From the IMG/VR virus record IMGVR_UViG_3300037466_002980, positions 298,811 to 362,810 of that record: a stretch of DNA of 64,000 nt; one strand, given 5' to 3'. Source of the DNA: a virus. Its lineage: Duplodnaviria; Heunggongvirae; Uroviricota; Caudoviricetes. Position 1 is the stretch's first letter; every line of letters begins with the position of its first letter. Under the pieces are notes generated by a model, which worked only from the letters and a program-made list of their open reading frames with translations, ran no database searches and was not told the DNA's origin. The translations under genes were made by a program, and so were the position numbers. This document shows positions 10,368 through 58,330 of this stretch, in pieces.

Positions 10368-10628
10368 TTAATTCACCCTATTCGCTGGATCCACATAGAT
10401 CTCACGAATATGTTCTGCAACAATTTCGTTATCTGTATGAATTTCAAAATTAGAAGTTCCACTAGCAGTGGATGTGAAAGATGCTCTATATAATTCATCT
10501 TTCCATTTTGTTAGATCATCAAGCAGTTTTCCTGTTGGAATTATATCTTTTACGGAAAAATAATCAATCTTAAACCCGAAACGTGTCTTTCGCGCTTTGA
10601 TTTCTCTAAATCCAGAGATATAATTCAT
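10368..10628 (-). CDS. hypothetical protein
   Basis: 86-aa ORF. Confidence 0.4.
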   Translation of the reverse strand: MNYISGFREIKARKTRFGFKIDYFSVKDIIPTGKLLDDLTKWKDELYRASFTSTASGTSNFEIHTDNEIVAEHIREIYVDPANRVN

Positions 10629-10837
10629 TAATAACTCCGTGTCAAAATAACACCTTCTTTTTTAGCATGTAGAAGGAATTCTATCCATTCCCATCCGTGT
10701 CTTTTACAAAATTCTAACCTTGCAAATGAAGAGCGAAATTCTCCCGCAAAATTAGTCTTATTGTATAGATCAAGAAGAACATAAAAATCAAGCCTTTTGA
10801 GCTTATTAAATGTATCCTCTTCTGTTTTGGTCTCCAT
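10628..10837 (-). CDS. divergent member of the 'MTEEDTF' family
   Basis: 'METKTEEDTFNKLKRLDF...KRHGWEWIEF'. Confidence 0.5.
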   Translation of the reverse strand: METKTEEDTFNKLKRLDFYVLLDLYNKTNFAGEFRSSFARLEFCKRHGWEWIEFLLHAKKEGVILTRSY

Positions 10838-11010
10838 TACCGATATTCCCTGCGCATTTTCTTCTTTGCGCGAATCATATCTTTTTCTTTGAATTTCTTT
10901 CGATCCTTTGGATGCACATACTCATCCTGATCGTAATCATCTTCATAATCGAAGTTATCTTCTTGATAATCTTCTTGATAATCTTCTTGATTAGGATTAT
11001 TCTGCTTCAT
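10837..11010 (-). CDS. acidic low-complexity mini-protein with QEDY repeats
   Basis: 57-aa ORF below the track cutoff; contains a 12-nt DNA tandem repeat (ATCTTCTTGATA)x3; TAATG junction with the next gene. Confidence 0.35.
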   Translation of the reverse strand: MKQNNPNQEDYQEDYQEDNFDYEDDYDQDEYVHPKDRKKFKEKDMIRAKKKMRREYR

Positions 11011-11076
11011 AGCCCACGATGCTGTTTTGCTGCCCTTATTTTATGTAATATCAAATAAAGTGTCAACAGGAGGTTG

Positions 11077-11484
11077 TTATTTCACTTCTTCAAATTCAAT
11101 ATTGTTCACATCGGAAAGTTTTGCCCAGAAACGCACTGGTCGTTTCGGAATTTTTTGTGTATAGGTAAAATCTTCTCTATCTCGGCCAGAAGCGAATTTG
11201 GTAGCAGTTTTCTGTATAACTCTTGGAGCAGTAGTCATACCCTTCCAAAGGAAGGTAACTGAATCAAACTCATCTTGACCTTTACGAATGTAAATACGGT
11301 CGATTTTTAATTCGGCCTGTGCTGGAATTACAACCTTGATTGCTGTATCACGGTCGTCCCATGGATCGCGTTTATCACCAACAATTTCCATTAATGTAGA
11401 ATTTCTGTCTTCAGCATATAGATTAAATTCCCAATCTTGGGTAAGACGAATAATATCGCCGATAGAAGGAATATAGAGTTTCAT
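11077..11484 (-). CDS. hypothetical protein
   Basis: 135-aa ORF. Confidence 0.45.
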   Translation of the reverse strand: MKLYIPSIGDIIRLTQDWEFNLYAEDRNSTLMEIVGDKRDPWDDRDTAIKVVIPAQAELKIDRIYIRKGQDEFDSVTFLWKGMTTAPRVIQKTATKFASGRDREDFTYTQKIPKRPVRFWAKLSDVNNIEFEEVK

Positions 11485-11852
11485 GATTTCAGACTTTCAG
11501 TTTCCAAATTAAATTCTGCCCATGCTTCGAAAAATTCCTCAGCAGTCCAATTTAATTCTGGAAGAACATCTTTAAGAGGTTTGCGTGGTAAACCAATATC
11601 GAGGATTTCAGAAAATGATTTCCGTTTTAATTTTCTTATTACATCATCTTCGGTTGTATATTTAAATTTTTTCGAAACCTTTTCAAAATTTTGATCGGTT
11701 GTATAATACAGAATAGAACCTATATCACCCTGGATTGAGGATTCATAAATACCGGCCTGCATTGTACCGTTGTTAAGAACGTGAATTACAATTGCCCTAG
11801 CAGATCCTTTAAAAAGGGCAATTCTATCACCGATTTTATATTTTGATTCCAT
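11481..11852 (-). CDS. hypothetical protein with an 'MTEEDTF'-family-like module in its C-terminal half
   Basis: internal 'TTEDDVIRKLKRKSFSEILD...NWTAEEF'; ATGA overlap with its neighbour. Confidence 0.45.
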   Translation of the reverse strand: MESKYKIGDRIALFKGSARAIVIHVLNNGTMQAGIYESSIQGDIGSILYYTTDQNFEKVSKKFKYTTEDDVIRKLKRKSFSEILDIGLPRKPLKDVLPELNWTAEEFFEAWAEFNLETESLKS

Positions 11853-12069
11853 TTTGGTTCTTCATCCTCTGGAAATCTTGTTCCCTTTGTGTATTAATAG
11901 TAATCACCCATTCATTCCAAGTCCAGCCATGTTGTTTGAAAAATTCTTCACGGTCTGTATTATAACTATCCTGAATGAATGACTTGTCAGCTATCCAACC
12001 ACTAAAAAGACGTGTAATATCATCCAATGGAATTTGTTTTAATTTCTTAAATGTATCTTCTTCAGTCAT
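11836..12069 (-). CDS. MTEEDTF-family small protein
   Basis: 'MTEEDTFKKLKQIP...HGWTWNEW'. Confidence 0.55.
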   Translation of the reverse strand: MTEEDTFKKLKQIPLDDITRLFSGWIADKSFIQDSYNTDREEFFKQHGWTWNEWVITINTQREQDFQRMKNQNGIKI

Positions 12070-12326
12070 TTAAAGAATTCTTTCATAAATTCATCAAAGT
12101 CCCATCCGTGTGGATCTAGAAATTCACGACATATTTCTTTTTGTTTTCCACTGTTCCACCATCTATTACATTCTCTTCGAATCCAGAATTCTTGAAAAGG
12201 CTCAACAATATCTTCAAACGGAGTTCTTTTCAAACGTTCAAATGTCTTCTCTGAATTGTCGTTCACGAGCTGTTCGGTAATATTCTGACCAGGTCCATCC
12301 ATGTTTAGCAAGTAATGAATTAACAT
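12066..12326 (-). CDS. MTEEDTF-family small protein; the true start is probably downstream at GTG 12266
   Basis: 'SEKTFERLKRTPFED...HGWDFDEF'. Confidence 0.5.
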   Translation of the reverse strand: MLIHYLLNMDGPGQNITEQLVNDNSEKTFERLKRTPFEDIVEPFQEFWIRRECNRWWNSGKQKEICREFLDPHGWDFDEFMKEFFK

Positions 12327-12492
12327 TATCCGAAGTTAATGGTGTATTTCTAAGTATTTCTTGAAATTCATCAAATGGTGTTTGTCTTAATTTTCTTAAT
12401 AATTCTTCTTCATTAGACACTTTTATTCTCTTCTCTCCATTGTCTAAAATATTCATTCTTTTCTTTTTCATATTCGACAGAATTCCATCCAT
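12238..12492 (-). CDS. MTEEDTF-family small protein; the probable start is GTG at 12420, tiled as GTGTCTAA on the previous gene's stop
   Basis: 'SNEEELLRKLRQTPFDEF...HGWTWSEY'. Confidence 0.5.
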   Translation of the reverse strand: MDGILSNMKKKRMNILDNGEKRIKVSNEEELLRKLRQTPFDEFQEILRNTPLTSDNVNSLLAKHGWTWSEYYRTARERQFREDI

Positions 12493-12631
12493 GCACCCTT
12501 AGAAGATTCAGATTCGAATCGAAACGTTCTTGATTAGATCCATGCCTCTTCATATTATTTTGATTAATAATTGCAATTATGTCCTCAATAGGACTTCTTC
12601 TCAATCGATTGAATGTATCATCTTCAGTCAT
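12413..12631 (-). CDS. MTEEDTF-family small protein
   Basis: internal start 'MTEDDTFNRLRRSPIEDI...HGWNSVEY'; ATGA junction. Confidence 0.55.
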   Translation of the reverse strand: MTEDDTFNRLRRSPIEDIIAIINQNNMKRHGSNQERFDSNLNLLRVHGWNSVEYEKEKNEYFRQWREENKSV

Positions 12632-12825
12632 TTTATAAGATAAGTTCTTTTCCAATGCATAACCCTAGCAGTTTCATATTCGTCGGGATTCCATCCATTT
12701 GCCCTAAGAAGTCTTATATTTCTTTCAAAAGAAACTCCCGCTTCTATGTTTGATTTCTGAATTATCTCTATCATTTCTCCAATAGGAGTTCTTCTCAATC
12801 GATTGAATGTATCATCTTCAGTCAT
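12628..12825 (-). CDS. MTEEDTF-family small protein
   Basis: 'MTEDDTFNRLRRTPIGEM...NGWNPDEY'. Confidence 0.55.
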   Translation of the reverse strand: MTEDDTFNRLRRTPIGEMIEIIQKSNIEAGVSFERNIRLLRANGWNPDEYETARVMHWKRTYLIK

Positions 12826-13012
12826 TTTGTTGCCTATATTCTACGTATTCGTAGTAGGTCCACTTATATTGTTGAAAGAAGGTATCCACCTTTTTGTCCC
12901 AGTCTTTGCTATTAAGAGAAAAACCAACACTTAGTAACCAAGCATGATACTTGGTTTTCATTTCAATGAATGGAATTCTATTCAAAACTTTGAAGGTATC
13001 GTCCTCAGTCAT
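12818..13012 (-). CDS. MTEEDTF-family small protein
   Basis: 'MTEDDTFKVLNRIPFIEM...YKWTYYEY'; 8-nt overlap. Confidence 0.55.
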   Translation of the reverse strand: MTEDDTFKVLNRIPFIEMKTKYHAWLLSVGFSLNSKDWDKKVDTFFQQYKWTYYEYVEYRQQND

Positions 13013-13015
13013 ATC

Positions 13016-13201
13016 TTATAATCGATAAAGATAATCGTGCCAGGTCCATCCATGTTCTTCAAAAAACGAATTTCTTTTTTTGTAAAAGTCGGACGTCGGA
13101 GTAACAAAGTCAATATTCTCTGAAAACCATTTAAGGTAAAGAATTTTCATTTCTTGAAAAGAAACTTTTTTCAATCTTAGAAATGTATCTTCTTCAGTCA
13201 T
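13016..13201 (-). CDS. MTEEDTF-family small protein
   Basis: 'MTEEDTFLRLKKVSFQEM...HGWTWHDY'. Confidence 0.55.
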   Translation of the reverse strand: MTEEDTFLRLKKVSFQEMKILYLKWFSENIDFVTPTSDFYKKRNSFFEEHGWTWHDYLYRL

Positions 13202-14359: not shown

Positions 14360-14451
14360 TGGTGCCCCGAGCCGGACTCGAACCGGCACGCCGCGATCAG
14401 GCAAGCGAGGGATTTTAAGTCCCTTGTGTCTACCAATTTCACCACCGGGGC
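14360..14451 (-). tRNA. tRNA-Leu (anticodon TAA), type II with a long variable arm; CCA is encoded
   Basis: reverse complement reads GCCCCGG TG GTGA AATTGGTAGA CACA AGGGA-CTTAAAA-TCCCT CGCTTGCCTGATCGCGGCGTG CCGG-TTCGAGT-CCGG CTCGGGGC A CCA; cloverleaf folded by hand. Confidence 0.8.
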
Positions 14452-15334: not shown

Positions 15335-15556
15335 TCAATACCTTAGATTAAACATAACAATATCTTCTTCGGTCGGAAAGACAACCATCCAACCTCTATC
15401 CTCGACATACTTTTCATAGATATTATATTTCTGAAGTTCTTGTGATAAATCATCGTTGGTTATAATATGAAAATTACCAATCTTACTTTCAACCTTATCC
15501 CACATTCTAGCATAGGCACGAATAATTCTTTCATCGTGGATACTAATTTCAATCAT
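15335..15556 (-). CDS. WW-array small protein of the terminal-motif family
   Basis: 'MIEISIHDERII...RGWMVVFPTEEDIVMFNLRY'. Confidence 0.55.
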   Translation of the reverse strand: MIEISIHDERIIRAYARMWDKVESKIGNFHIITNDDLSQELQKYNIYEKYVEDRGWMVVFPTEEDIVMFNLRY

Positions 15557-15557
15557 A

Positions 15558-15761
15558 TTAATTCTTTAGAATAAACATGATCAGATCTTCTTCATTTTCA
15601 AAGATAAGATACCAACCATATGCTCCTCGTTTGAAATTACAATTATACTTTTTCAATTCGTCGGTAATAAAATCAATTACATCCGATGTTTGAATACCTT
15701 TGTGCCAAATCCTATGATATTGTTTTGCTACCCTCAAATCATCAATGCTAATCTCTACCAT
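15558..15761 (-). CDS. WW-array small protein of the terminal-motif family
   Basis: '...YNCNF..GWYLIFENEEDLIMFILKN'; 2-nt spacing from its neighbour. Confidence 0.55.
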   Translation of the reverse strand: MVEISIDDLRVAKQYHRIWHKGIQTSDVIDFITDELKKYNCNFKRGAYGWYLIFENEEDLIMFILKN

Positions 15762-15762
15762 A

Positions 15763-15972
15763 TCAATTTAATAATATAAAAGCAAGTGCATCTTCTTCAT
15801 TATCGAAGCAGAGCCACCATTCTCCATCTTCATATTCAAACTTGCAATTATATTTTCTTAATTCTTTTTTTAGTTGTTCGATTCTAAATTCAAGACGTAC
15901 ATCAACAACAAGATCGAATATCTTATCATAGAAATTTACTACCTTAGGATCATGAATTCTAAATTTAACCAT
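15763..15972 (-). CDS. WW-array small protein of the terminal-motif family
   Basis: '...YNCKF..WWLCFDNEEDALAFILLN'. Confidence 0.55.
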   Translation of the reverse strand: MVKFRIHDPKVVNFYDKIFDLVVDVRLEFRIEQLKKELRKYNCKFEYEDGEWWLCFDNEEDALAFILLN

Positions 15973-15973
15973 T

Positions 15974-16183: not shown

Positions 16184-16184
16184 A

Positions 16185-16397: not shown

Positions 16398-16415
16398 TTT
16401 TAAGCAGTATCAGAA

Positions 16416-21438: not shown

Positions 21439-21515
<77 letters not shown>

Positions 21516-30168: not shown

Positions 30169-30347
30169 GTGTTTCCTTTGCTAGTATTTATCTTCGATCT
30201 ACCTTTATAATATTTCACTATTCTATCACCAACGACATACAGTGAAAGCCAAAATGGTATCCATGCCCAGATTGTTACCGGTCCTACAAAAATCCTTACA
30301 AACAGGACTGCAAGTATCCAGGAAATTGGTATTAATAAATTATTCAT
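30165..30347 (-). CDS. small membrane protein
   Basis: hydrophobic 'ISWILAVLFVRIFVGPVTIWAWIPFWLSLYVV'. Confidence 0.4.
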   Translation of the reverse strand: MNNLLIPISWILAVLFVRIFVGPVTIWAWIPFWLSLYVVGDRIVKYYKGRSKINTSKGNT

Positions 30348-30552
30348 ATATGTTTAATTGTGAGTTACGGAACTTTCTATATTCTTTGTATGTCCAGTTA
30401 TGTTTTTCAAAAAATTTATTACGTTCTTTCATATATTCTTCTTCTGACTGATTAAAGATATTTCTGTTATCAGTTACCCAATTAAGAAAATAGGATCTCA
30501 TTTCAGTAAATGAAATTCTTTTCAATCGACTGAATGTATCATCTTCAGTCAT
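30340..30552 (-). CDS. MTEEDTF-family small protein
   Basis: internal start 'MTEDDTFSRLKRISFTEM...HNWTYKEY'; 8-nt ATGACTGA overlap. Confidence 0.55.
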   Translation of the reverse strand: MTEDDTFSRLKRISFTEMRSYFLNWVTDNRNIFNQSEEEYMKERNKFFEKHNWTYKEYRKFRNSQLNIYE

Positions 30553-30823
30553 ATATCTTTTCTCTTTCCTTCTTATATTCTTGAAGTGTCCATCCATGAC
30601 TTTCGAAAAATTTATCACGTTGTATAATCATATCTTCCCACGATGGAAATATATGATTATCGGATGCCCATTGGATGAAATATTCCCTCATCTTATTAAA
30701 GGGAGGTTTTTTTAATTTTCTAAATACTTCATCCTCAGTTGAAATATCTTGCATCACTAAATTCCTTTGATGTCCAATAATGTTTTTTAAAGAATTTTTC
30801 TCTTGCCACTTCAAATTTATCAC
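30545..30823 (-). CDS. MTEEDTF-family small protein; the probable start is M24 at 30754
   Basis: 'STEDEVFRKLKKPPFNKM...HGWTLQEY'. Confidence 0.5.
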   Translation of the reverse strand: MINLKWQEKNSLKNIIGHQRNLVMQDISTEDEVFRKLKKPPFNKMREYFIQWASDNHIFPSWEDMIIQRDKFFESHGWTLQEYKKEREKIYD

Positions 30824-30923
30824 GTTCTAAAAGAGCTGTTTCAGCACAAAATTCTCCATAGAGATCCCACATTTTTTCCTTTGAAGGTCTCTTTAATATT
30901 CTAAATATTTTATCCTCAGACAT
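30735..30923 (-). CDS. MTEEDTF-family small protein
   Basis: 'MSEDKIFRILKRPSKEKM...HYWTSKEF'. Confidence 0.5.
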   Translation of the reverse strand: MSEDKIFRILKRPSKEKMWDLYGEFCAETALLERDKFEVAREKFFKKHYWTSKEFSDARYFN

Positions 30924-31110
30924 AATTCATAAAATATTGTTGCATCCATTCTTCCCAGGTCCATCCAAGTTGGTTGAAGAATTTTTCGCGATTTTTTAAG
31001 AAATCCTTATCCACGACATTTCCCGGTATATCTAACCAAAGTTTATATTTTTCCCATGCTTCGAGAAACGTGGACTTCTTAAGAGTATTAAACGTATCTT
31101 CTTCAGTCAT
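30916..31110 (-). CDS. MTEEDTF-family small protein
   Basis: 'MTEEDTFNTLKK...LGWTWEEW'. Confidence 0.55.
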   Translation of the reverse strand: MTEEDTFNTLKKSTFLEAWEKYKLWLDIPGNVVDKDFLKNREKFFNQLGWTWEEWMQQYFMNYV

Positions 31111-31297
31111 TTGTTTTAATGTTGTCTCTTTCTAGAATGAATTCCTTATATGTCCATCCATGTTTTTCTAATAGTGTAGAAAACATTGTTTTATCTGTAA
31201 GATCAATTAACCATGCCTTATAAGTTTCCATTATTACATTAAAGGGTGGTTTCTTTAAAATTCTAATTAATTTGTCTTCAGATGATTCTTCTGTCAT
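31103..31297 (-). CDS. MTEEDTF-family small protein
   Basis: 'MTEESSEDKLIRILKKPPF...HGWTYKEF'. Confidence 0.55.
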   Translation of the reverse strand: MTEESSEDKLIRILKKPPFNVIMETYKAWLIDLTDKTMFSTLLEKHGWTYKEFILERDNIKTND

Positions 31298-31470
31298 TCT
31301 CTTTTCTCTATGAATTCTTCATATGTCCAACCATGTTTATCTAGTAAATCATGTACTGGTGTTCTGTCCGTAAAATTGAATAACCATTTGTTATAGATAC
31401 TTGTCATTTCCTGCAGACTTACTCTTCTTAGAATTCTAGCTAACTTATCCTCCGAAACTTCCCTGTCCAT
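31294..31470 (-). CDS. MTEEDTF-family small protein, 58 aa (below the ORF-track cutoff)
   Basis: translated by hand: 'MDREVSEDKLARILRRVSLQEM...HGWTYEEF'; ATGA junctions on both sides. Confidence 0.45.
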   Translation of the reverse strand: MDREVSEDKLARILRRVSLQEMTSIYNKWLFNFTDRTPVHDLLDKHGWTYEEFIEKRE

Positions 31471-31661
31471 CACTCGTCTCTAATAAGGTTAAACGGCATG
31501 TCGTTTAATGCCAGCTTATATGCCTTGTTTAATCCTGCAATAATGCCAGAATAATACCGCCTTACGCCCGGGTCAGCGGTCCTGTGCTCGAGTTGTGTAA
31601 AATGATCGGACATTTTATCAATCTGTTCAAGAAATTTGTCTTTTTCTTTCATACCAGGCAT
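31470..31661 (-). CDS. hypothetical protein
   Basis: 63-aa ORF; GC-richer. Confidence 0.35.
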   Translation of the reverse strand: MPGMKEKDKFLEQIDKMSDHFTQLEHRTADPGVRRYYSGIIAGLNKAYKLALNDMPFNLIRDE

Positions 31662-31836
31662 CCCTTTGAGTTACAAATTCATCTAATGTCCAACCATTCG
31701 TCTCTAGAAATTCAGATATACCAATGTGCGTTACTTTCTTATTGTCATCCCAATACCAGTTATAATATAAATTATAAATTTCTACAAAGGTAGGTCTCTT
31801 TAGTTTTAGAAAAAGCCAATCCTCAGAATTTTCCAC
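31627..31836 (-). CDS. MTEEDTF-family small protein
   Basis: 'MENSEDWLFLKLKRPTF...NGWTLDEF'. Confidence 0.5.
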   Translation of the reverse strand: MENSEDWLFLKLKRPTFVEIYNLYYNWYWDDNKKVTHIGISEFLETNGWTLDEFVTQRDAWYERKRQIS

Positions 31837-31853: not shown

Positions 31854-32234
31854 TTATGGTTTGCATTCCAAACCGGTTAAATCAGCATGAGATGTAAAGG
31901 TTCTGTTTTCTGGTATCTCATCCATCCAGTAGGTTCCGTTTGAGACCTTATGGAAATGCATATCATTCCAGGTAATCAAAAACATACCATGCCAGACCCC
32001 ATCATCTTTTTCTCCGGATGTTTGTTCTGGACCATAATCAAGAAAGAAACCCCATGCTTCATCATAACAGATTTTTTGTGCATGTGGATAATTTCTTGCC
32101 ACAGCATCAAACGCATGTGATAAATCCGGCCAGTCGGCTTGAGTTTGAGTAGATGAGGTAGTTTGTGGTGGTTCACTCTTTTTACCACATGCTATTAAGG
32201 AACATGCCAAGAGAAGAATAATTAAATTTTTCAT
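31854..32234 (-). CDS. lipoprotein
   Basis: signal peptide with a lipobox, 'MKNLIILLLACSLIACGKK'. Confidence 0.5.
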   Translation of the reverse strand: MKNLIILLLACSLIACGKKSEPPQTTSSTQTQADWPDLSHAFDAVARNYPHAQKICYDEAWGFFLDYGPEQTSGEKDDGVWHGMFLITWNDMHFHKVSNGTYWMDEIPENRTFTSHADLTGLECKP

Positions 32235-32437
32235 TTTAGATACTTACTGTAATATTCGTTAAAATGTTTATTCATCATTTTATTATATTCATCTGATGTC
32301 CATCCATAATTTTTCATAAATTTATGCCATTCTTCCGTTGGCATATAACCCGTTTCCCTATTCCGTTTTATGACCAACGACATCATTTCAAATATCGTTG
32401 GTTTTCTTAATGCATTGAATGTATCTTCTTCGGTCAT
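32231..32437 (-). CDS. MTEEDTF-family small protein
   Basis: 'MTEEDTFNALRKPTIFEM...YGWTSDEY'. Confidence 0.55.
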   Translation of the reverse strand: MTEEDTFNALRKPTIFEMMSLVIKRNRETGYMPTEEWHKFMKNYGWTSDEYNKMMNKHFNEYYSKYLK

Positions 32438-32613
32438 TATAAACAATCGAGGTAAAATTTCTTTCGTATAAATTCTTCAGTAGTCCAGCCATATTTGTTC
32501 AGAAATTCTTCTAGATCCCGGCGTGCGGTTCCGGTATATTTTCTATACCATATATCATCTATTTCCGAAAATGATAATTTCTTTAATCTTAAGAATGTGT
32601 CGTCTTCAGTCAT
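32437..32613 (-). CDS. MTEEDTF-family small protein, 58 aa (below the cutoff)
   Basis: translated by hand: 'MTEDDTFLRLKKLSFSEI...YGWTTEEF'; ATGACTGA and TAATG junctions. Confidence 0.45.
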   Translation of the reverse strand: MTEDDTFLRLKKLSFSEIDDIWYRKYTGTARRDLEEFLNKYGWTTEEFIRKKFYLDCL

Positions 32614-32812
32614 ATGATCTTATTCTATTATAATAATCATCTTCTACTGCTTGATGGTATTCGGCATAATTCCAGCCGTTTGTTTCTAACAATCGAAAAA
32701 ATTCTTCCTGTCTTGCAGGCCAATCATCTACAAAGTGTTCCTTCGTAACTAATTTCATCATTTCTTGGTATGGTATTCTTCTGAGACGATTAAAGGTGTC
32801 TTTTTCAGTCAT
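32606..32812 (-). CDS. MTEEDTF-family small protein
   Basis: internal start 'MTEKDTFNRLRRIPYQEM...NGWNYAEY'. Confidence 0.55.
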   Translation of the reverse strand: MTEKDTFNRLRRIPYQEMMKLVTKEHFVDDWPARQEEFFRLLETNGWNYAEYHQAVEDDYYNRIRSYD

Positions 32813-32996
32813 AGAATTTTGACCTTCTTCTTTCTCTTTCATCGTCAAATTCATCAACTGTCCAATTACCTTCATTCAGCAATGATCTATAACTTCTATC
32901 ATCGCTCCAATTTCTTGCCCAATCTGTAACCTTCCGATCCATTTCATCAAAAGAAATTCTTTTTAGTTTTCGAATAAGTTCAATTTCTGAGCTCAT
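32805..32996 (-). CDS. MTEEDTF-family small protein
   Basis: 'MSSEIELIRKLKRISFDEM...GNWTVDEF'. Confidence 0.5.
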   Translation of the reverse strand: MSSEIELIRKLKRISFDEMDRKVTDWARNWSDDRSYRSLLNEGNWTVDEFDDERERRRSKFYD

Positions 32997-33044
32997 AGCT
33001 ATATTATATGATTTTGATCATTGGAGGGCAAAGACACCTCAAAA

Positions 33045-33075
33045 GAAAACCCACCTTTTGAGTGGGTTTTCTGGT
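33045..33075 (-). terminator. rho-independent terminator
   Basis: stem AAAACCCAC/GTGGGTTTT followed by a T-run; immediately downstream of the vWA gene. Confidence 0.5.
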
Positions 33076-35719: not shown

Positions 35720-35750
35720 TTCTTAATCCCTTATATGTCCATATATTCGA

Positions 35751-35936
35751 TTATAATTTTCTCGTTGCCATTCTCTTACTGTCCAACCATTTATGTGCAA
35801 TTCTATTTCTTTCGCTTGTCCAGATATTATAGGATTTAGGATCACCCTTATATTGATATTTTAATCTCTGAAACTCCGATTCTAAATGTTCAAAGGAACT
35901 CTTCTTTAATCGGTTAAATGTATCATCTTCGTTCAT
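35751..35936 (-). CDS. MTEEDTF-family small protein
   Basis: 'MNEDDTFNRLKKSSFEHL'. Confidence 0.5.
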   Translation of the reverse strand: MNEDDTFNRLKKSSFEHLESEFQRLKYQYKGDPKSYNIWTSERNRIAHKWLDSKRMATRKL

Positions 35937-36135
35937 TTAATGTCTTTTCATAATATTCGTTGAAATGAATAAACAACTGTTCATTATATTCACGACGAGT
36001 CCATCCATTACAACGAAATAGTGAATCCCAATCATAATCTCTCCCGGCATACTTACTATTGATTTCTGAAACTTTAGAAATCATTTCTAAAATCGGAGTT
36101 TTCCTTAAGGCGTTAAATGTATCGTCTTCTGTCAT
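35923..36135 (-). CDS. MTEEDTF-family small protein
   Basis: 'MTEDDTFNALRKTPILEM...NGWTRREY'. Confidence 0.55.
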   Translation of the reverse strand: MTEDDTFNALRKTPILEMISKVSEINSKYAGRDYDWDSLFRCNGWTRREYNEQLFIHFNEYYEKTLNERR

Positions 36136-36143: not shown

Positions 36144-36326
36144 TCATAATGAAGATCCACCTTGGTGTATCCAAAGTATGTATTCGCTGCGTTTCCACCC
36201 ATTTGCATTAAGTAGCTCATCAAAATTTCTTTTATCTTTAGAGTTAAGTCTCCAGAGCTTAATTTCGCCAATTAAATGCGGTATAGGAACTTTTTTCAAA
36301 AGACGAATTGTATCCTCTTCCTTCAA
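36144..36326 (-). CDS. MTEEDTF-family small protein
   Basis: 'MKEEDTIRLLKKVPIPHL...NGWKRSEY'. Confidence 0.5.
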   Translation of the reverse strand: MKEEDTIRLLKKVPIPHLIGEIKLWRLNSKDKRNFDELLNANGWKRSEYILWIHQGGSSL

Positions 36327-36559
36327 GATATATCGCCCCTAATCATAAGTGTTTCTTTAGTTCCTTCGACTCTGATTTCTCTAAATGTATATCCATTTTC
36401 TTTCCAGAACTCTTTCCATGTTTTTAACACAATTTCATTTTTGGTCTGAATTGCAATAATACTTACATCTTCTACTTCCTCGGTAAGAGAAAAATAGGAA
36501 TAACTTCCGTGTGATTTCTTAAAATATTTCAATACCAAATAGGTTTCATCAATGCTCAT
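36323..36559 (-). CDS. small protein of the N-terminal-motif type
   Basis: 'MSIDETYLVLKYF...LMIRGDIS'. Confidence 0.45.
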   Translation of the reverse strand: MSIDETYLVLKYFKKSHGSYSYFSLTEEVEDVSIIAIQTKNEIVLKTWKEFWKENGYTFREIRVEGTKETLMIRGDIS

Positions 36560-36753
36560 TTGAAAATTTCCTTATGATCGTCTATCCACACTGCTTGCCA
36601 AAAATCAATTCGATTCCATCCATATCCATTTAAAAATTCTGATTCTGTCAATAAATTTTCGTTGTCACCTTTAATGGTCCATTCTCTATATAATTCTCTC
36701 ATCTTTTCAAGAGAGGGCCTTTTTAATTTTCTAAAGGTATCTTCTTCAGTCAT
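36556..36753 (-). CDS. MTEEDTF-family small protein
   Basis: 'MTEEDTFRKLKRPSLEKM...YGWNRIDF'. Confidence 0.55.
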   Translation of the reverse strand: MTEEDTFRKLKRPSLEKMRELYREWTIKGDNENLLTESEFLNGYGWNRIDFWQAVWIDDHKEIFK

Positions 36754-36919
36754 TCCAACCTAACCTTTTTAATGCTTCTTCGACTATTTCATCATATGTC
36801 CAGCCTGTTCCATTTAGTGCTGAAATTCTATCTAGAATGTTTGTTGGCCTATTGAATACAGTTCTCGTTTCCTCATATGGCATCTTCTTCAATTTATTAA
36901 ATGTTTCTTCTTCACTCAT
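36746..36919 (-). CDS. MTEEDTF-family small protein, 57 aa (below the cutoff)
   Basis: translated by hand: 'MSEEETFNKLKKMPYEET...TGWTYDEI'; ATGA and ATGACTGA junctions. Confidence 0.45.
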   Translation of the reverse strand: MSEEETFNKLKKMPYEETRTVFNRPTNILDRISALNGTGWTYDEIVEEALKRLGWND

Positions 36920-53484: not shown

Positions 53485-53772
53485 TTAATTACCTTTAATT
53501 GTTCTTACCATTTCTGCTTCAGAAATGAATTGTTTCGCATTTTGTATGAACTCTTCTAGTTCTTCCAAATCAAGACCGTGGAAGGCAATTCTTTGTGTTC
53601 TAACTGGCTTATTACGACTCCACTGCGGAAAATTATAAAGAGATACAATTAATCCGCCTGTTTCCGTAATTTCAATTCGAAGCTTTTCATTGCCAGTAAT
53701 CGAGACCGCCTCTGCGGCCAATGTGTCGGATTTATAATCATTTTCAGCAACGGATAATTCTTTAAGCTGCAT
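53485..53772 (-). CDS. hypothetical protein, paralog of the gene at 53224..53484
   Basis: see its paralog. Confidence 0.45.
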   Translation of the reverse strand: MQLKELSVAENDYKSDTLAAEAVSITGNEKLRIEITETGGLIVSLYNFPQWSRNKPVRTQRIAFHGLDLEELEEFIQNAKQFISEAEMVRTIKGN

Positions 53773-53995
53773 AAGGACCTATTCTATACAATTCTTCAGC
53801 AAAATCTTCCCACGTCCAACCATATTCATTAAATAATGCATCTACAGTATCGGAATAATTTTCGGAATGTGCATCGTGTGGTGAAATGCTCTTTATGTAA
53901 ATTTTTGACATTTCCTTAAAAGAAACCTTCCTGCGAAGTATTCTAAATGGTCTGTCCAGATCTTTTTCTTCGATTATATTCTTCATAGAATTCAT
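53762..53995 (-). CDS. MTEEDTF-family small protein
   Basis: 'EEKDLDRPFRILRRKVSFKEM...YGWTWEDF'. Confidence 0.5.
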   Translation of the reverse strand: MNSMKNIIEEKDLDRPFRILRRKVSFKEMSKIYIKSISPHDAHSENYSDTVDALFNEYGWTWEDFAEELYRIGPYAA

Positions 53996-54158
53996 TCCAG
54001 GTCCATCCCCTGGGATTTAAAAAGTTTTCCATTCCGGGACGATCATAATAAACATCCATTACCAATTTTTGTTGGTCATTACTTGGAAGCATTTTAAATT
54101 CTCTATCTACAATCTCCCACGGATCACGTCGAAGTTTTTTGAAGATCAAATCATCCAT
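53943..54158 (-). CDS. MTEEDTF-family small protein
   Basis: 'MDDLIFKKLRRDPWE...RGWTWNEF'; 8-nt overlap. Confidence 0.5.
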   Translation of the reverse strand: MDDLIFKKLRRDPWEIVDREFKMLPSNDQQKLVMDVYYDRPGMENFLNPRGWTWNEFYEEYNRRKRSGQTI

Positions 54159-54360
54159 ATTTGCCACGCCTGGTGGATTCGATTGTTATTTCTTCTAATG
54201 TCCATCCGTACTTAGGATAAAATTTTCTTAACCAATTCGTGTATTCGACTCCTTCGAGAGTCGAATTAGGAAATAATCTTATATTTCTTCTCCAGATATC
54301 TATCATTTCGTCGTAGGTAGGCTTTCTTAGCCGTTCAAATGTTTTATTAATATCATCCAT
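54151..54360 (-). CDS. MTEEDTF-family small protein
   Basis: 'MDDINKTFERLRKPTYDEM...YGWTLEEI'. Confidence 0.55.
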   Translation of the reverse strand: MDDINKTFERLRKPTYDEMIDIWRRNIRLFPNSTLEGVEYTNWLRKFYPKYGWTLEEITIESTRRGKYG

Positions 54361-54425
54361 GCTGGTCTATGTTAACCATTAGATTAACATAGAACAACAG
54401 GATGGGCAAAAGCCCATCCTTGTGT

Positions 54426-55628
54426 TTACTTCTTCACCGGAGTATTGGCTCGAATGCTCAGATCCAATCCGAGATCACGTGCAGCCTTGGCTGAAAGGAT
54501 GTCGATCATCGAAGTTGCACGATCCACACCGCCTGCACCAGCCTGTCCCATTTGCATCTGCGGAGACCATGCACCGGGTTGTGCCTTGGCAATCGAGTCG
54601 CCGAGTACCGTCATGACCTTTTCGTAGGTAGCGAGCTTCTTGTCGAGTTGACCGTCGGCTGCCATCACCGCACTTTTACGTGCAGCTTCACCTTCACCAC
54701 GCAGAGTTTCTGCCTTCTTGTAGAGTTCAGCTTCCTTGACGTTGGCTTCCGCGATGGTCACCTTGGCCTGGGCATCAGCAATGCTCTTCGCCGCAATAGT
54801 CTTTTGTTCCCATTCTGCCTTCTTGGCGGCCGCTTCACCTTGTGCAGCCGCAGTGATTGCATCCTGTTCCGCTCTTTTGGCGTTGGAGGCAGCAATGGTC
54901 ACTTGGTTGATGGCATCCTGTTGTGTCTTGATCTGTTTCGTAACAGCCTCATCGTAATCCATTTTCGACACGGTAAGAGGACGCATGTGAATGTTAAATT
55001 CAGACACGTACGAATCCTGTGCGCGTTGAGGTTTACCATCTGATCCCATAACGATTTCGACGGCTGTCACCTGGCGATGGATTTTCGTAATCGGATCTTC
55101 CACATCCATGGTTTTGGATTGCGTTTTGTAAACGCCGTGGAGCATTTGTTCATTGATGAGCTGGAGCAGTTCATTTCGTTTACCGGCTGCCGAATCCAAC
55201 GAACTCATGGTAGGGCCCGAGAAATATGCAGCTGATTCCATAGCACGACGAATTGCTCGCGTTTCCACACCTTCGGGACTACCGAATGCTTTGTGAATTG
55301 CAATAATGCTCTTCTTGTCCAATGGCATTTCCCAGGAAACTGCACCCTTAACGAATGCATGGCCACCGTCATAGAATTGAATCACCAGCGGATCTTGCTG
55401 AAAATTGAATTCTTTCATGATCGGATATTTTGTTACCGTACCCCACCAGGTCCACTTCCAGCCCGGTTCGGTATAAACAGTGAGATCACCAGTCATCGGT
55501 GCCTGCACCACCATTACGTGATGGGCATCGTTTTCTGCCCACATGCCGTACACCAACGGAATACCAACCAGCACGGCCGCAGCCAGCAGGAAGGTCGTGA
55601 TGACGCGCTTAAAAGACCAAGTGTTCAT
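54426..55628 (-). CDS. SPFH / Band-7 (HflK/HflC/flotillin-like) membrane protein
   Basis: N-terminal transmembrane helix; SPFH-like core followed by a long Ala/Gln/Lys-rich coiled coil ('ASNAKRAEQDAITAAAQGEAAAKKAEWEQ'); GC-rich; four overlapping plus-strand ORFs are antisense. Confidence 0.55.
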   Translation of the reverse strand: MNTWSFKRVITTFLLAAAVLVGIPLVYGMWAENDAHHVMVVQAPMTGDLTVYTEPGWKWTWWGTVTKYPIMKEFNFQQDPLVIQFYDGGHAFVKGAVSWEMPLDKKSIIAIHKAFGSPEGVETRAIRRAMESAAYFSGPTMSSLDSAAGKRNELLQLINEQMLHGVYKTQSKTMDVEDPITKIHRQVTAVEIVMGSDGKPQRAQDSYVSEFNIHMRPLTVSKMDYDEAVTKQIKTQQDAINQVTIAASNAKRAEQDAITAAAQGEAAAKKAEWEQKTIAAKSIADAQAKVTIAEANVKEAELYKKAETLRGEGEAARKSAVMAADGQLDKKLATYEKVMTVLGDSIAKAQPGAWSPQMQMGQAGAGGVDRATSMIDILSAKAARDLGLDLSIRANTPVKK

Positions 55629-55988: not shown

Positions 55989-56423
55989 TTAAGAAATAGA
56001 TTCTCTTGAATAGGTACCGTCACCGTTTGGTGTTAATTTAAGCCTCTTTGAAGGATATTTATAATCTCCTACTTGGGTAAAACTTTCGTTAAGATATCCC
56101 TCTCTAGTAATATCATAGACTTTCCAGTTTTCCATAGGGGAAACACCTTGTACGTAATCAATCCTTTTTCCATATGTTTGGAAGCACCAATCTTCAATCC
56201 ATGAACGAGAATTAATCCAGTAAAAAGCCTCATTATAAAATTCAACATGAACTGAACCGTAATATCCTCTACCTTCGGTTAGATCGGGACTGAAAACAAT
56301 ATTCCAATAGGTTGTAAATTTCTTTCTCTTTTCTATCTGTTCTTCGTAAGCAATACAATCTTTTTCGGTAGTAAATTCCGTGTTGTCGTCTGCTATATAT
56401 ATTGTGCTTGTTTTAGTTTTCAT
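55989..56423 (-). CDS. hypothetical protein
   Basis: 144-aa ORF. Confidence 0.45.
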   Translation of the reverse strand: MKTKTSTIYIADDNTEFTTEKDCIAYEEQIEKRKKFTTYWNIVFSPDLTEGRGYYGSVHVEFYNEAFYWINSRSWIEDWCFQTYGKRIDYVQGVSPMENWKVYDITREGYLNESFTQVGDYKYPSKRLKLTPNGDGTYSRESIS

Positions 56424-56617
56424 AATTCTTTCTTGCTTTCATTAATCCATTCCATATAAGTCCATCCATACGATTCGAATAACTTATCATTTTCCGGCCA
56501 ATAATTTTCTTTTAGGAAGGAATCTCTCCCTGCTGAAATCCACCAATCTTTATAATATTCTGACATTTGATTAAATGATACTCTCTTTAACCTTTTAAAT
56601 GTATCTTCTTCAGTCAT
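56420..56617 (-). CDS. MTEEDTF-family small protein
   Basis: 'MTEEDTFKRLKRVSFNQM...YGWTYMEW'. Confidence 0.55.
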   Translation of the reverse strand: MTEEDTFKRLKRVSFNQMSEYYKDWWISAGRDSFLKENYWPENDKLFESYGWTYMEWINESKKEL

Positions 56618-56815
56618 TTAATATTCTCGTCGGTAATATTCAATGCTATATTCTTCAACAGTCCATCCATGCCTTTTGAAGAATTTAAATGTATCAAAAT
56701 TAGGATGATAACGAGATTCTGAATTCGACTTAGGACGATAGGTACCTCCCCATAGTCGTTTCATCTCTTCATAATCGACTCGCCGAAGTCGGGCAATCAG
56801 ATCATCTTCGTCCAT
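56618..56815 (-). CDS. MTEEDTF-family small protein
   Basis: internal start 'MDEDDLIARLRRVDYEEM...HGWTVEEY'. Confidence 0.5.
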   Translation of the reverse strand: MDEDDLIARLRRVDYEEMKRLWGGTYRPKSNSESRYHPNFDTFKFFKRHGWTVEEYSIEYYRREY

Positions 56816-56997
56816 AAAGATTTTTGATATTCTATGTATTCGTTTATAAAATCCTGAACTTCCCAATTATATTCATCAAAGAATTCTTTTGGAACATCGC
56901 CTAAATCCTGAAAGAAGAATTTACTCTCCAATCTATCTTTTACAATATTGAATGGTGCTCTTTTTAATTTCCTAAAGGTATCATCCTCATTTGTCAT
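56797..56997 (-). CDS. MTEEDTF-family small protein
   Basis: 'MTNEDDTFRKLKRAPF...YNWEVQDF'. Confidence 0.55.
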   Translation of the reverse strand: MTNEDDTFRKLKRAPFNIVKDRLESKFFFQDLGDVPKEFFDEYNWEVQDFINEYIEYQKSLWTKMI

Positions 56998-57221
56998 GAC
57001 TGCAATTTGAATTTTGTAAAATATTCAGCCATTGGATGTGTTAATAGGGATCTAGCTCCAAAGGCAATATATCCGAATCTGGTATCTTGATCGATATAAT
57101 CCACACCCTTAATTACAAACGTTCCATCTATACATTCTAATTGTGTACCATCCGGCAATTGATTATATTCTTCCGGTGTGATAAGATATAGTGGATTTTC
57201 TTCATTGCTCCATTTTATCAA
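56994..57221 (-). CDS. hypothetical protein
   Basis: 75-aa ORF. Confidence 0.4.
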   Translation of the reverse strand: MIKWSNEENPLYLITPEEYNQLPDGTQLECIDGTFVIKGVDYIDQDTRFGYIAFGARSLLTHPMAEYFTKFKLQS

Positions 57222-57400
57222 TTACATCTCCATAATCCAATCTGGTGTTCTTTGTATTCTTTTATTGTCCATCCACGATGTTCGAAAAATTCTTCGACAC
57301 GTTCTGGATGATTTGGCGTTTCAAGATAATCTATTAGTGCCAATACCATTTCATCATATGGTATTTGTCTTAATTTTCTAACTGTATCTTCTTCAGTCAC
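57218..57400 (-). CDS. MTEEDTF-family small protein
   Basis: 'MTEEDTVRKLRQIPYDEM...RGWTIKEY'. Confidence 0.55.
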   Translation of the reverse strand: MTEEDTVRKLRQIPYDEMVLALIDYLETPNHPERVEEFFEHRGWTIKEYKEHQIGLWRCN

Positions 57401-57618
57401 TATTCACCTGTTGATAAATCGATGTTATTCTTTCTACATTCCTTGGCAAGGATATTCCAATTCCAACTTGTATTTTCCCAGAGTTGTTTCCAGATTTCAT
57501 TTACTTCATTAGAAGATAGATATGGATTACGATATACACCGGCGGTATCAAAATACCTATCTACTATTTCAGATAATGGTATTCTCTTCAATGCAAGAAA
57601 TGTATCATCTTCGGTCAT
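57400..57618 (-). CDS. MTEEDTF-family small protein
   Basis: 'MTEDDTFLALKRIPLSEI...TSWNWNIL'. Confidence 0.5.
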   Translation of the reverse strand: MTEDDTFLALKRIPLSEIVDRYFDTAGVYRNPYLSSNEVNEIWKQLWENTSWNWNILAKECRKNNIDLSTGE

Positions 57619-57803
57619 TGTTGTGAATTTTCATCCATTCTTCTATTATGTTCGTCAGCTAATTCCATTAATGTCCATCCACGTCGATATAAGAATTCAG
57701 ATTCTATCTCCGTGTTAACAAATGGAAGCCTCATCCATAATTTGAGCATTTCCTCATATGGAATTCTTTTTAATTTTTGAATTAATCTTTCTTCAGAATC
57801 CAT
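57615..57803 (-). CDS. MTEEDTF-family small protein
   Basis: internal start 'MDSEERLIQKLKRIPYEEM...RGWTLMEL'. Confidence 0.5.
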   Translation of the reverse strand: MDSEERLIQKLKRIPYEEMLKLWMRLPFVNTEIESEFLYRRGWTLMELADEHNRRMDENSQQ

Positions 57804-58107
57804 GTGTATTATAATCACTCATATCTAAACAATGATCTTTTGGAATATCTCCTCTAATGAATTCCATTCGAACATTAAATTCTTTCATTTCTTTTAGATA
57901 GTGTTCAATAGTCTTACCATGCCAAATTTTCGGAATAGCATATTTTACTTTACACCATTCGACATTGTTTTCGGGTCTTCCCGAATACTGGCATCTAAAT
58001 GAATAACTATCACTCAATCCACCAGACATTGTTTGAAGATAAAGTGGACGACACCAATCTTCTCCGTTTATAATGTCGGAAGGTTCAAGGAGTTGTATTG
58101 CTATCAT
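57793..58107 (-). CDS. hypothetical protein
   Basis: 104-aa ORF. Confidence 0.4.
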   Translation of the reverse strand: MIAIQLLEPSDIINGEDWCRPLYLQTMSGGLSDSYSFRCQYSGRPENNVEWCKVKYAIPKIWHGKTIEHYLKEMKEFNVRMEFIRGDIPKDHCLDMSDYNTHGF

Positions 58108-58330
58108 TAGGTGTATTCACTTGAACTGTAGATGTTGGCGTAATCAAAATACCCAAGATTAACCTGTTTTTTTTTGACCAGAGTTGTTTTTGAAATTCTT
58201 CAGGTTCCCAGAAATATTGTTTCATCAATTCATTTAATGAAAAATGTGATCTTTTGTTTTCCCAAATTTCATACATTTCCTCAAAGGATGGCTTCTTTAA
58301 TTTCTTAAACGTGTCGTCTTCAGCATTCAT
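58085..58330 (-). CDS. MTEEDTF-family small protein
   Basis: 'MNAEDDTFKKLKKPSFEEM...YFWEPEEF'. Confidence 0.55.
   Translation of the reverse strand: MNAEDDTFKKLKKPSFEEMYEIWENKRSHFSLNELMKQYFWEPEEFQKQLWSKKNRLILGILITPTSTVQVNTPNDSNTTP

Follow-up and report, generated by a model that had tools for sequence, protein, structure and literature searches.

Small genes packed in tandem raise the question of what sets the boundary between one gene and the next, the encoded protein or the DNA itself. We address it in a 64-kb stretch (positions 298,811 to 362,810 of IMG/VR record IMGVR_UViG_3300037466_002980; hereafter the window, whose own coordinates are used throughout) of an uncultured phage of ~363 kb, in which a family of small proteins starting with MTEEDTF and ending in an HGWTW-like motif is encoded many times over. 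The source contig has 362,810 bp. The window has a GC content of ~0.34, and nearly all of its genes lie on one strand. An earlier note had proposed that the conserved start of these genes contains a stop codon for the preceding gene, that neighbors overlap by exactly 8 nucleotides (nt), and that this amounts to programmed translational coupling across a duplicating cassette. The overlap geometry proved to be built into the conserved start; the exactness, the programming, and the duplication fared less well.

The Family in the Window

We translated the window in six frames into stop-to-stop segments and searched these with a hidden Markov model (HMM) that was seeded with 12 obvious members and iterated to convergence. 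The search recovered 35 family members (domain E values, 2e-9 to 3e-23), which share the minus strand and fall into five clusters, out of ~185 genes called in the 64 kb. They lie at 10628-10837 (one member), 11481-13201 (eight), 30340-31470 (six), 31627-31836 (one), 32231-32996 (four), 35751-36326 (three), 36556-36919 (two), 53762-54360 (three), 56420-56997 (three), 57218-57803 (three), and 58085-58330 (one). The six arrays described earlier were all recovered, and the count of at least 31 copies was too low; outside those arrays lie the member at 10628-10837 and a C-terminal domain within 11481-11852. A relaxed HMM search of the small genes between the arrays gave no extra members and returned only the out-of-frame C terminus of the copy at 35936.

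Stand-alone copies are 57-81 amino acids (aa) long, typically ~65 residues, and one copy forms the C-terminal domain of a 123-aa protein. In the alignment of the 35 members, L10 and W52 are invariant, and E3 (31/35), [KR]11 (34/35), G51 (26/35), T53 (24/35), and E56 (29/35) are widely shared, with E3, [KR]11-12, G51, T53, E56, and [FYW]57 as near-invariant positions; the conserved N terminus and HGWTW-like end reported before are real features of the family. The region between the two motifs differs in sequence and length among members, as do the C-terminal tails in length, and most members are mildly acidic (median isoelectric point 5.3).

Start positions required care. The earlier note had moved several over-extended N termini downstream, and its correction was right for 12631, 30552, 32812, and 32437; the three short members that it listed at 31294..31470, 32437..32613, and 36746..36919 exist as claimed, with 58, 58, and 57 aa. 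The starts at 12420, 12266, 31836, 36326, and 53986 were placed by homology alone. Public gene calls on identical or nearly identical DNA (contigs L045, L046, and L047, corresponding to window ~29950-33000) give differing starts for the same genes, for example, 82 versus 68 aa and 85 versus 70 aa. Starts called automatically cannot be relied on within such arrays, and members of 57-58 aa fall below a 60-aa cut-off, so that family-aware start calling is needed.

Homologues, Fold, and Strain Comparison

Four independent lines of evidence show that the members are real protein-coding genes. When 1.84 billion cluster representatives were searched exhaustively with the family profile, 1,775 proteins matched at E<=1e-3, and 219 reached E<=1e-10; nearly all of the matches are 55-80 aa long and begin with MTE[ED]DTF, and a few are two-domain fusions (e.g., P0016). 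From a 35-sequence alignment, AlphaFold2 predicted a confident bundle of 4-5 helices (predicted local distance difference test, pLDDT, 89.9; predicted template modeling score, pTM, 0.73). Contigs from other samples were 100%, 99.2%, and 98.8% identical to the window, and the differences within members from the 98.8-99.2%-identical strains comprised 13 synonymous and 16 nonsynonymous changes (P = 0.011 against a neutral expectation of ~24% synonymous differences, which is our own estimate). By these counts, the family is under purifying selection between strains, and each copy is kept. The likeness among members is found at the protein level only, and the synonymous sites of the motifs vary freely (GAT/GAC, TTT/TTC, and GAA/GAG).

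The family matched no catalogued one. Scans of all 35 members against Pfam, PHROGs, NCBIfam, and PADLOC gave only isolated single-member matches at E >= 8e-4, none common to two or more members, and a sequence-profile search of the Protein Data Bank (PDB) gave matches only at E >= 0.02. A helical DNA-binding domain of the DEK_C or SAP-like kind was considered and dropped, as there was no significant sequence or fold similarity at that PDB level. A tblastn search of cultured phages with a natural member and with the HMM consensus found no match even at E<=10, although low-complexity filtering may have hidden some of the consensus from the search, and megablast of window 28000-40000 found no DNA match in cultured phages.

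We gathered homologous loci in other phages with degenerate DNA patterns of the family N terminus. Excluding the contigs of the window phage itself, 57 of 108 distinct pattern matches in the fetched loci were family members; in representative bacterial and archaeal genomes none of the 68 pattern matches was, hence they give no clue to the host. Arrays recur in these phages, with 15 copies in a 9.2-kb contig, eight in 12.6 kb, and six copies each in pieces of jumbo-phage contigs of 364.6 and 211.6 kb. A single-copy subfamily (MTEDDTFRVLAxRIPFYDMMKLYRSG...; L002 2757-4603, and L032, L033, L037, L041, and L042) always stands behind a ~385-aa protein that belongs to phrog_11903 and adjoins a gene of the T4 gp13-like neck-protein family, the subfamily junction being an ATGA overlap with an in-frame TAA. 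We dropped this neighbor as a functional clue: in Pseudomonas phage PA5oct the gene for its annotated neck protein comes directly after the 385-aa gene, and the family is absent from that place.

At three further loci (the 74-aa open reading frame from reverse-strand position 750 of L031, L035 4370-4594, and L119) the first ~14 residues of the family (MTEDDTFxALxKPP) stand on an unrelated, possibly metal-binding body, giving a different protein of ~74 aa (…AFGRxVWIYCDQHMRxHxTGWCTV…). This protein is probably a chimera that arose by recombination at the conserved 5' end. The idea that the N-terminal motif is a portable signal found on many proteins was rejected, as only this one other type of small protein carries it and the remaining pattern matches were chance or internal ones.

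Junction Geometry

We scored 24 member-to-member junctions using the homology-based starts. Nine overlap by 8 nt, six of them via ATGACTGA and one each via ATGGATGA (54158), ATGTCTGA (30923), and GTGTCTAA (12420), the last being the GTG variant that had already been noticed. The others are overlaps of 4 nt (four), 1 nt (two), and 14-44 nt (six), one abutting pair, and two gaps of 3 and 8 nt, so that an overlap of exactly 8 nt describes about three-eighths of the junctions rather than all of them. To avoid circularity, we repeated the comparison without reference to the family, calling the ~185 minus-strand genes by a codon-usage score and placing their starts by a nearest-start rule. Overlaps of 8 nt were found at 9 of 31 junctions leading into a member and at 5 of 112 other junctions (Fisher P = 3.4e-4), an enrichment of about six-fold; a lack of such enrichment is what the earlier note had named as evidence against its proposal. 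Four-nucleotide overlaps were equally common in the two sets (7/31 and 28/112), and neighbors in the same frame were rare (2 of 31 family junctions). The family junctions of other phages have another composition, with 25 of 83 overlapping by 4 nt, 17 by 14 nt (through the GAT-GA of Asp-Asp), and only 8 by 8 nt.

Coupling by termination-reinitiation at overlapping stop and start codons, such as ATGA and TGATG, is well described (Huber et al. 2019, PMC6728339). Among 1,695 species, no spacings are commoner than -4, -1, and -8 nt, with -8 nt ranking third, and each of the three is classed as compatible with termination-reinitiation; no overlap shorter than -8 can exist in that phase, reinitiation is reported to be less efficient there than at the shorter overlaps, and spacings from -8 to +10 nt are taken as predictive of reinitiation (PMC10666635). 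Of our junctions, 18 of 24 fall within that spacing range (PMC10666635). The arrays resemble known termination-reinitiation pairs in that the genes are codirectional and 15 of the 24 junctions overlap by 8, 4, or 1 nt. They differ from them in that the stop of the upstream gene sits within a coding motif conserved across the family, which has stops in both alternative frames, and in that 8-nt overlaps outnumber 4-nt ones among the window family, contrary to the usual ranking.

The Start Motif as By-Product or Target of Selection

The sequence ATGACTGA carries TGA in both alternative frames, as ATGA in frame +1 and as ACTGA in frame +2. That the start motif holds a stop for the preceding gene was thus correct for the +2 TGA, which gives the 8-nt overlap, while the second, +1 TGA had been overlooked. 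The first codons encode Met, Thr/Ser/Asn, and Glu/Asp and thereby create ATGA (a +1 stop) and NNT-GA (a +2 stop at 8, 11, or 14 nt): within the first 18 nt, 25 of the 35 members have a +1 stop and 26 a +2 stop, compared with 26% and 36% of internal windows. Because of these codons, translation of any out-of-frame upstream gene ends only a few bases away from the next start, and this termination explains the excess of 8-nt overlaps.

The protein fold offers a reason for the residues concerned. By established helix-capping rules, an N-capping box consists of the residue before a helix and an acidic residue three positions later. In the structure model, T2, S/P14, and T53 are placed directly before helices with an acidic residue three positions on and would form classic boxes of this kind, and F7, L10, F15, M18, W52, and F/Y57 are predicted to be hydrophobic residues of the core. 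Helix capping would thus explain Thr/Ser/Asn at position 2 followed by Glu/Asp, the codons of which begin with A, completing ATGA, and then with GA, completing NNT-GA.

We resampled synonymous codons according to the codon usage of the window. A +2 stop was present in the first 9 nt of 17 of the 35 members, compared with 10.7 in the resampled sequences (P = 0.007), and in the first 15 nt of 24 members, compared with 19.5 (P = 0.04). Most +2 stops therefore come from the amino acid sequence, and codon choice adds a modest excess. This excess is concentrated in codon 2, where ACT encodes 12 of the 17 Thr2 residues in the window; by comparison, ACT encodes 0 of 18 residues at Thr6, and its share is 21% in the remainder of the members, 26% in long open reading frames, and 35% when a GA codon follows. 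In other phages, using patterns with a free wobble base, ACT was found at 31 of 60 Thr2 codons against a baseline of 27% (P = 6e-5) and at 12 of 56 Thr6 codons. Among MTEDD starts of other phages, ACT at codon 2 and GAT at codon 4 tend to exclude each other (ACT+GAT 8, ACT+GAC 17, non-ACT+GAT 23, and non-ACT+GAC 4; Fisher P = 1.7e-4), so that 48 of the 52 genes retain at least one +2-frame TGA within the first 14 nt. The association runs against the direction that GC heterogeneity would give, and the covariation is suggestive of selection.

Off-frame stops are also the subject of the ambush hypothesis, which concerns the enrichment of "hidden stops" in coding sequence. The window family agrees with it in that off-frame stops in its coding sequence exceed the expectation from codon usage. 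Unlike the hidden stops of that hypothesis, which act on frameshifted ribosomes of the same gene, those of the family are enriched only in the first ~14 nt and act on the frame of the upstream gene.

Age and Turnover of the Copies

Pairwise identity among the copies ranges from 17 to 48%, with no pair above 48%; neighboring copies match each other best in just three cases, and identity is 0.265 within arrays and 0.244 between them. The contigs of the 98.8-99.2%-identical strains (L011 and L048) have the same copies in the same order. Judged from this divergence, the copies are old paralogs in old arrays with no recent duplication, and the picture of a duplicating cassette is not borne out. The turnover that we did observe is decay, not gain, as each of two strains has a different frameshifted copy. 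The copy at 35751-35936 has a 2-nt deletion at 35791 relative to the intact 71-aa version (P0012) in the 98.8%-identical strain, and in that other strain (L011 6721-6967) a 1-nt insertion at window 32348 splits the counterpart of the member at 32231-32437. The two frameshifts may represent real pseudogenization or assembly error.

Lineage-specific expansions of paralogs are familiar from large viruses, among them the "genomic accordions" of poxviruses and the multigene families of giant viruses and jumbo phages. The window family shares with them the tandem arrays, single copies that are dispensable (as the frameshifts in both strains show), and a location among many accessory genes (RtcB, Macro, HNH, and tRNAs); unlike the copies in accordions, those in the window are ancient, individually conserved, and unannotated, and no fewer than four further families of small genes form arrays within the window. 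A literature search on paralog arrays in jumbo phages found nothing relevant. We give next to no credence to the view that the arrays are a recent adaptive amplification that is still duplicating, which is already refuted for the window genome: the tandem arrangement and the slightly higher identity within arrays are what it would predict, but identity peaking at 48%, mutual best matches for just three adjacent pairs, and unchanged copies and order in the related strains are not.

Expression Context

Perfect matches to TTGACW-N16-18-TAWAAT occur three times on the minus (coding) strand against 0.37 expected, at 7350-7378, 11038-11066, and 29536-29565, all of them intergenic, and suggest transcription by a host sigma-70-type polymerase. 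Several looser versions of the promoter precede gene blocks; across 29500-37500, which includes two arrays, promoter-like sites are at chance level (35 versus 33.3 in shuffled sequence). We infer that the window would be an early accessory region of polycistronic blocks transcribed by the host RNA polymerase. A Shine-Dalgarno 4-mer was found upstream of 18% of the starts in the family and 24% of those outside it, compared with 9% of random positions. Masking of start codons by RNA structure was rejected as an explanation, the starts being less structured than the background.

A 57-aa, highly acidic repeat protein (QEDYQEDYQED...) is encoded at 10837-11010, directly upstream of the member at 10628-10837. 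Its gene stands behind the perfect promoter-like site at 11038-11066 and shows a 12-nt in-frame indel between strains (10957-10968).

Explanations Compared

On balance, and with confidence only a little better than even, we favor a composite explanation in which an old, expanded family of helical proteins is expressed from reinitiating early operons, its gene overlaps being mostly a by-product of the protein sequence with a modest contribution of synonymous selection, and its products being host-directed binders. The overlaps would largely follow from the protein sequence in an AT-rich genome, while a modest layer of selection at synonymous sites would retain one +2-frame TGA. The arrays would be transcribed from sigma-70-type promoters as polycistronic early messages, and ribosomes that end one copy would begin the next at its overlapping or abutting start by termination-reinitiation, which would help genes that mostly lack a Shine-Dalgarno motif; coupling at the junctions is plausible from their geometry. 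The least secure step is the last one, in which the proteins are cytoplasmic binders for host takeover or counter-defence, with the variable middle setting target specificity: a stable helical scaffold may have been diversified on one face to bind different host or defense proteins early in infection.

Several observations weigh against this explanation. Six of the 24 junctions overlap by 14-44 nt, beyond the range taken as efficient for reinitiation. Random windows fold more stably than the start regions (-8.2 versus -6.1 kcal/mol), and with such open starts independent initiation is also possible. In other phages, ACT was found at 15 of 31 starts entered by an upstream gene in frame +1 and at 6 of 16 entered in frame +2, so that a tie between ACT and a +2-frame upstream gene had to be rejected; the preference for ACT may reflect something other than the provision of a stop, for instance, an effect of the second codon on initiation. 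The ACT/GAT covariation drops to P = 0.036 when one sequence is kept per 50%-identity cluster. Finally, operon structure, true starts, and coupling are all read from the DNA.

The same data bear on two accounts that move the weight to one side or the other. In one, which we think unlikely, the 5' end of the cassette is a selected, frame-independent adaptor: the first five codons would be selected at synonymous sites for ATGA plus exactly one +2-frame TGA, with ACT-GA and GAT-GA interchangeable, such that any upstream frame is stopped, coupling is preserved by selection at the nucleotide level, and each ~200-bp gene is a self-contained cassette. This account fits the surplus of ACT at codon 2, seen in the window as well as in other phages, and also the ACT/GAT covariation, which leaves at least one +2 TGA in 48 of 52 genes and is opposite to the effect of GC heterogeneity; it is likewise in line with C-terminal tails of variable length, frameshifted copies in both strains, and just 2 of 31 neighbors being in frame. 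But ~80% of the observed +2 stops are expected from the amino acid sequence alone, ACT is no commoner where the upstream gene is in frame +2, 14-nt overlaps outnumber 8-nt ones in other phages, genes with both TGAs are in deficit, which a simple need for a stop does not predict, and the covariation is weaker once de-replicated. The description of the arrangement as programmed is not supported, on much the same evidence, most +2 stops following from the protein sequence (19.5 of 35 expected, 24 observed), ACT being unrelated to the upstream frame, and the 8-nt overlap making up only 8 of 83 junctions elsewhere. The opposite account, by which the overlaps are a pure by-product of compaction and of the Thr/Ser-acidic N terminus and ribosomes start on every gene separately, on a leader that is A-rich and unstructured, also seems to us rather improbable. 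It is consistent with the outcome of synonymous resampling, with the open start regions, with 4-nt overlaps being just as common at non-family junctions (28 of 112), and with a bioRxiv survey that calls short overlaps evolutionarily labile (10.64898/2026.09.10.750558); it does not account for an ACT excess that is significant at codon 2 and absent at codon 6, for Shine-Dalgarno motifs so scarce that another route of initiation is needed, or for 18 of 24 junctions lying within the -8 to +10 nt range predictive of reinitiation (PMC10666635).

A different reading of the conserved N terminus takes it as a detachable signal. In T4, about three genes encode internal proteins that share an N-terminal capsid-targeting sequence, which is cleaved after Glu, and the cleavage motif of the T4 prohead protease is L/I-x-E. 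The peptide MTEEDTFxxLKRxPFxEM might likewise be a targeting signal or propeptide, with the members packaged or injected; it is the most conserved stretch over ~1,800 clusters, its [FIL]-x-E-M resembles the protease motif, the small, probably chimeric protein described above bears its first ~14 residues on a different body, and the phage has T4-like relatives. The family does resemble the T4 internal-protein genes, as these are generally described, in being small phage genes with a conserved N-terminal peptide and divergence behind it, in a phage with T4-like and jumbo relatives. It differs from them in conserving its C terminus, in having 35 copies and not about three, and in showing neither a head-module context nor evidence of a protease. 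AlphaFold2 packs helix 1 into the bundle (pLDDT 96 over residues 11-20); the C-terminal GWT..E[FY] is as conserved as the N terminus, which argues that the whole protein is one domain; the motif is internal in 11481-11852 and in two-domain fusions such as P0016; and the genes lie amid early-like promoters of the sigma-70 type and not in a head module. A T4-type capsid-targeting family was therefore rejected, the bodies being homologous through GWT..E[FY] and the N-terminal helix lying within a confident fold, and we regard the targeting reading as very improbable.

Individual Members

All members are on the minus strand and are given here from high to low coordinates. The outermost (58085..58330; 81 aa, MNAEDDTF...; E 1.3e-14) overlaps an upstream non-member by 4 nt through ATGA. 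Next comes a group of three: a 62-aa member (57615..57803; MDSEERLIQKLKR; E 9.8e-15) with an 11-nt overlap via TCTGA with an upstream non-member, a 72-aa member starting with ATGACCGAA (57400..57618; E 3.5e-16) that overlaps the preceding member by 4 nt, and a 60-aa member starting with GTGACTGAA (57218..57400; E 9.1e-18) with a 1-nt overlap (TAGTG). The group at 56420-56997 opens with a 66-aa member (56797..56997; MTNEDDTF; E 1.2e-13), overlapping an upstream non-member by 4 nt, and continues with two members of 65 aa, one with a 19-nt overlap (56618..56815; MDEDDLIARLRR; E 3.2e-19) and one that starts with ATGACTGAA and abuts the upstream stop (TAA ATG; 56420..56617; E 3.1e-23); the latter is the sequence of the structure model with pLDDT 89.9.

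A 400-aa gene (54426-55628) and then a hairpin with a T-run (~54400-54419) precede the array of three at 53762-54360. Its first member has 69 aa (54151..54360; E 3.5e-15), its second has 71 aa, starts with ATGGATGA, and overlaps by 8 nt (53943..54158; E 3e-15), and its third, of 74 aa (53762..53986; E 3e-16), has an uncertain start (ATG 53986 or 53995) and an overlap of at least 44 nt. At 36746..36919, the 57-aa member (MSEEETF, start ATGAGTGA; E 1.1e-14) overlaps an upstream non-member by 4 nt and is followed, with an 8-nt overlap, by a 65-aa member with ATGACTGA (36556..36753; E 6.9e-20). The 60-aa member at 36144..36326 (E 2e-13) has TTG as its sole available start and a 4-nt TTGA overlap with an upstream non-member; behind it, after an 8-nt gap, stands a 70-aa member starting with ATGACAGAA (35923..36135; E 2.4e-19). 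The frameshifted member follows (35723..35936; E 9.7e-11): its N-terminal part stops at 35751, and the lost C terminus (INGWTVREW...), a weak match in a second frame, reaches 35723.

Directly upstream of the array that begins at 32996 are a terminator-like hairpin (33038-33062) and a sigma-70-like promoter candidate, TTGCCC-17-TATAAT (33003-33031), identified by consensus match only (33003..33062 together). The four members of this array have 63 aa (32805..32996; E 2.2e-16), 68 aa with ATGACTGA (32606..32812; E 2.7e-19), 58 aa with ATGACTGA (32437..32613; E 9.9e-19), and 68 aa with start ATGACCGAA (32231..32437; E 1.3e-18), joined by overlaps of 8, 8, and 1 nt; the last is the one that is frameshifted in the related strain. 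A 69-aa member with a putative GTG start (31627..31836; E 1.3e-17) stands 17 nt behind a non-member gene. The six members at 30340-31470 begin with one of 58 aa (31294..31470; MDREVSEDKLARILRR; E 9.6e-19) that overlaps an upstream non-member by 1 nt. Those behind it have 64 aa with start ATGACAGAA (31103..31297; E 9.1e-18; 4-nt overlap), 64 aa with ATGACTGA (30916..31110; E 8.7e-21; 8 nt), 62 aa with ATGTCTGA (30735..30923; E 1.3e-19; 8 nt), 69 aa (30545..30754; MQDISTEDEVF; E 1.8e-21; 20 nt), and 70 aa with ATGACTGA (30340..30552; E 2.1e-21; 8 nt).

The array of eight starts with a 61-aa member (13016..13201; start ATGACTGAA; E 8.2e-21). The second (12818..13012; 64 aa, start ATGACTGAG; E 5.1e-22) is in frame with it across a 3-nt gap, and the third (12628..12825; 65 aa, ATGACTGA; E 1.1e-18) overlaps by 8 nt. 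The fourth (12413..12631; 72 aa; E 5.6e-19) and the seventh (11836..12069; 77 aa; E 3.6e-23) start with ATGACTGA used as a 4-nt ATGA overlap. The fifth (12238..12420; E 4.4e-15) has 60 aa and an 8-nt overlap if GTG 12420 (GTGTCTAA) is its start; public gene calls start it at ATG 12492 (84 aa). The sixth (12066..12266; E 2.6e-15) has at least 66 aa, an uncertain start (GTG 12266, ATG 12302, or ATG 12326), and an overlap of at least 29 nt. The eighth is the 123-aa protein (11481..11852; E 2e-9; 17-nt overlap), in which the family domain occupies residues 70-120 behind an unrelated N-terminal part of 69 residues. The last member of the window (10628..10837; 69 aa, METKTEEDTF; E 2.3e-16) overlaps the acidic-repeat gene by 1 nt. 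Farther off, at ~46584-46628 on the same strand, an intergenic mini-ORF of 14 codons (MDETFKILKERNEL, followed by a stop) looks like a relic of the family N terminus.

Genome Context and Other Small-Gene Families

The window also encodes RtcB, a Macro-domain protein, a DUF2201 metallopeptidase/VWA protein, an HNH endonuclease, AAA+ ATPases, one of them with weak nSTAND/NACHT matches, and two tRNAs; no structural gene was identified among the window genes. For individual genes, the closest relatives in culture come from T4-like or jumbo phages (Cr30, 52%; BcepSaruman, 58%). The tRNA genes, tRNA-Leu(TAA) at 14360-14451 and tRNA-Arg(TCT) at 21439-21515, both on the minus strand, lie among the small-gene arrays, with RtcB (58571-59785) and the Macro-domain protein nearby, a gene set that suggests tRNA repair and counter-defence.

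A second tandem family on the minus strand (15335-17547 and 43348-45944) comprises 16 proteins of ~70-100 aa with a C-terminal F(E/D)xEEDxxxFKLK(F/Y)-like motif and has no Pfam or PHROGs match. One 228-aa protein (16643-17329, minus strand) joins an N-terminal GNAT acetyltransferase domain (Pfam E 1.8e-14) to a C-terminal part that belongs to this family, a fusion that might hint at its role. The region 36916-40906 (minus strand; 36916-39453 and 39463-40906) holds two linked groups of four (N-terminal M(N/S)EI..(F/L)L.LKY and C-terminal ..LV(V)R.D..), similar unlinked neighbors, and a group of five proteins of ~95 aa; of the five 8-nt overlaps outside the MTEEDTF family, three (ATGTCTGA, ATGCATGA, and ATGTCTGA) fall within this region. 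Together the MTEEDTF family and those of 16, 5, and 4+4 members account for about one third of the ~185 window genes.

Implications

The mechanism of overlap is textbook knowledge; what is unusual is its scale and its being built into a start motif. What remains of interest is how large a family has gone wholly uncatalogued and that one off-frame TGA may be under selection at the 5' end of each gene; the kind of overlap itself is known. If the start proved to be a selected adaptor, it would be a modularity device encoded in the sequence, with which a family of host-directed binders could duplicate, shuffle, frameshift, or lose copies in the early operons of jumbo phages without breaking downstream expression. 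Should the ACT/GAT covariation hold up once phylogeny is taken into account, it would cleanly exemplify selection that acts on off-frame stops where genes meet. The family of ~65 residues has ~1,800 metagenome cluster representatives and recurs in arrays in uncultured jumbo phages. Expanded and individually conserved, such small early proteins are natural candidates for roles in host takeover or anti-defence, and they form a well-defined set for testing.

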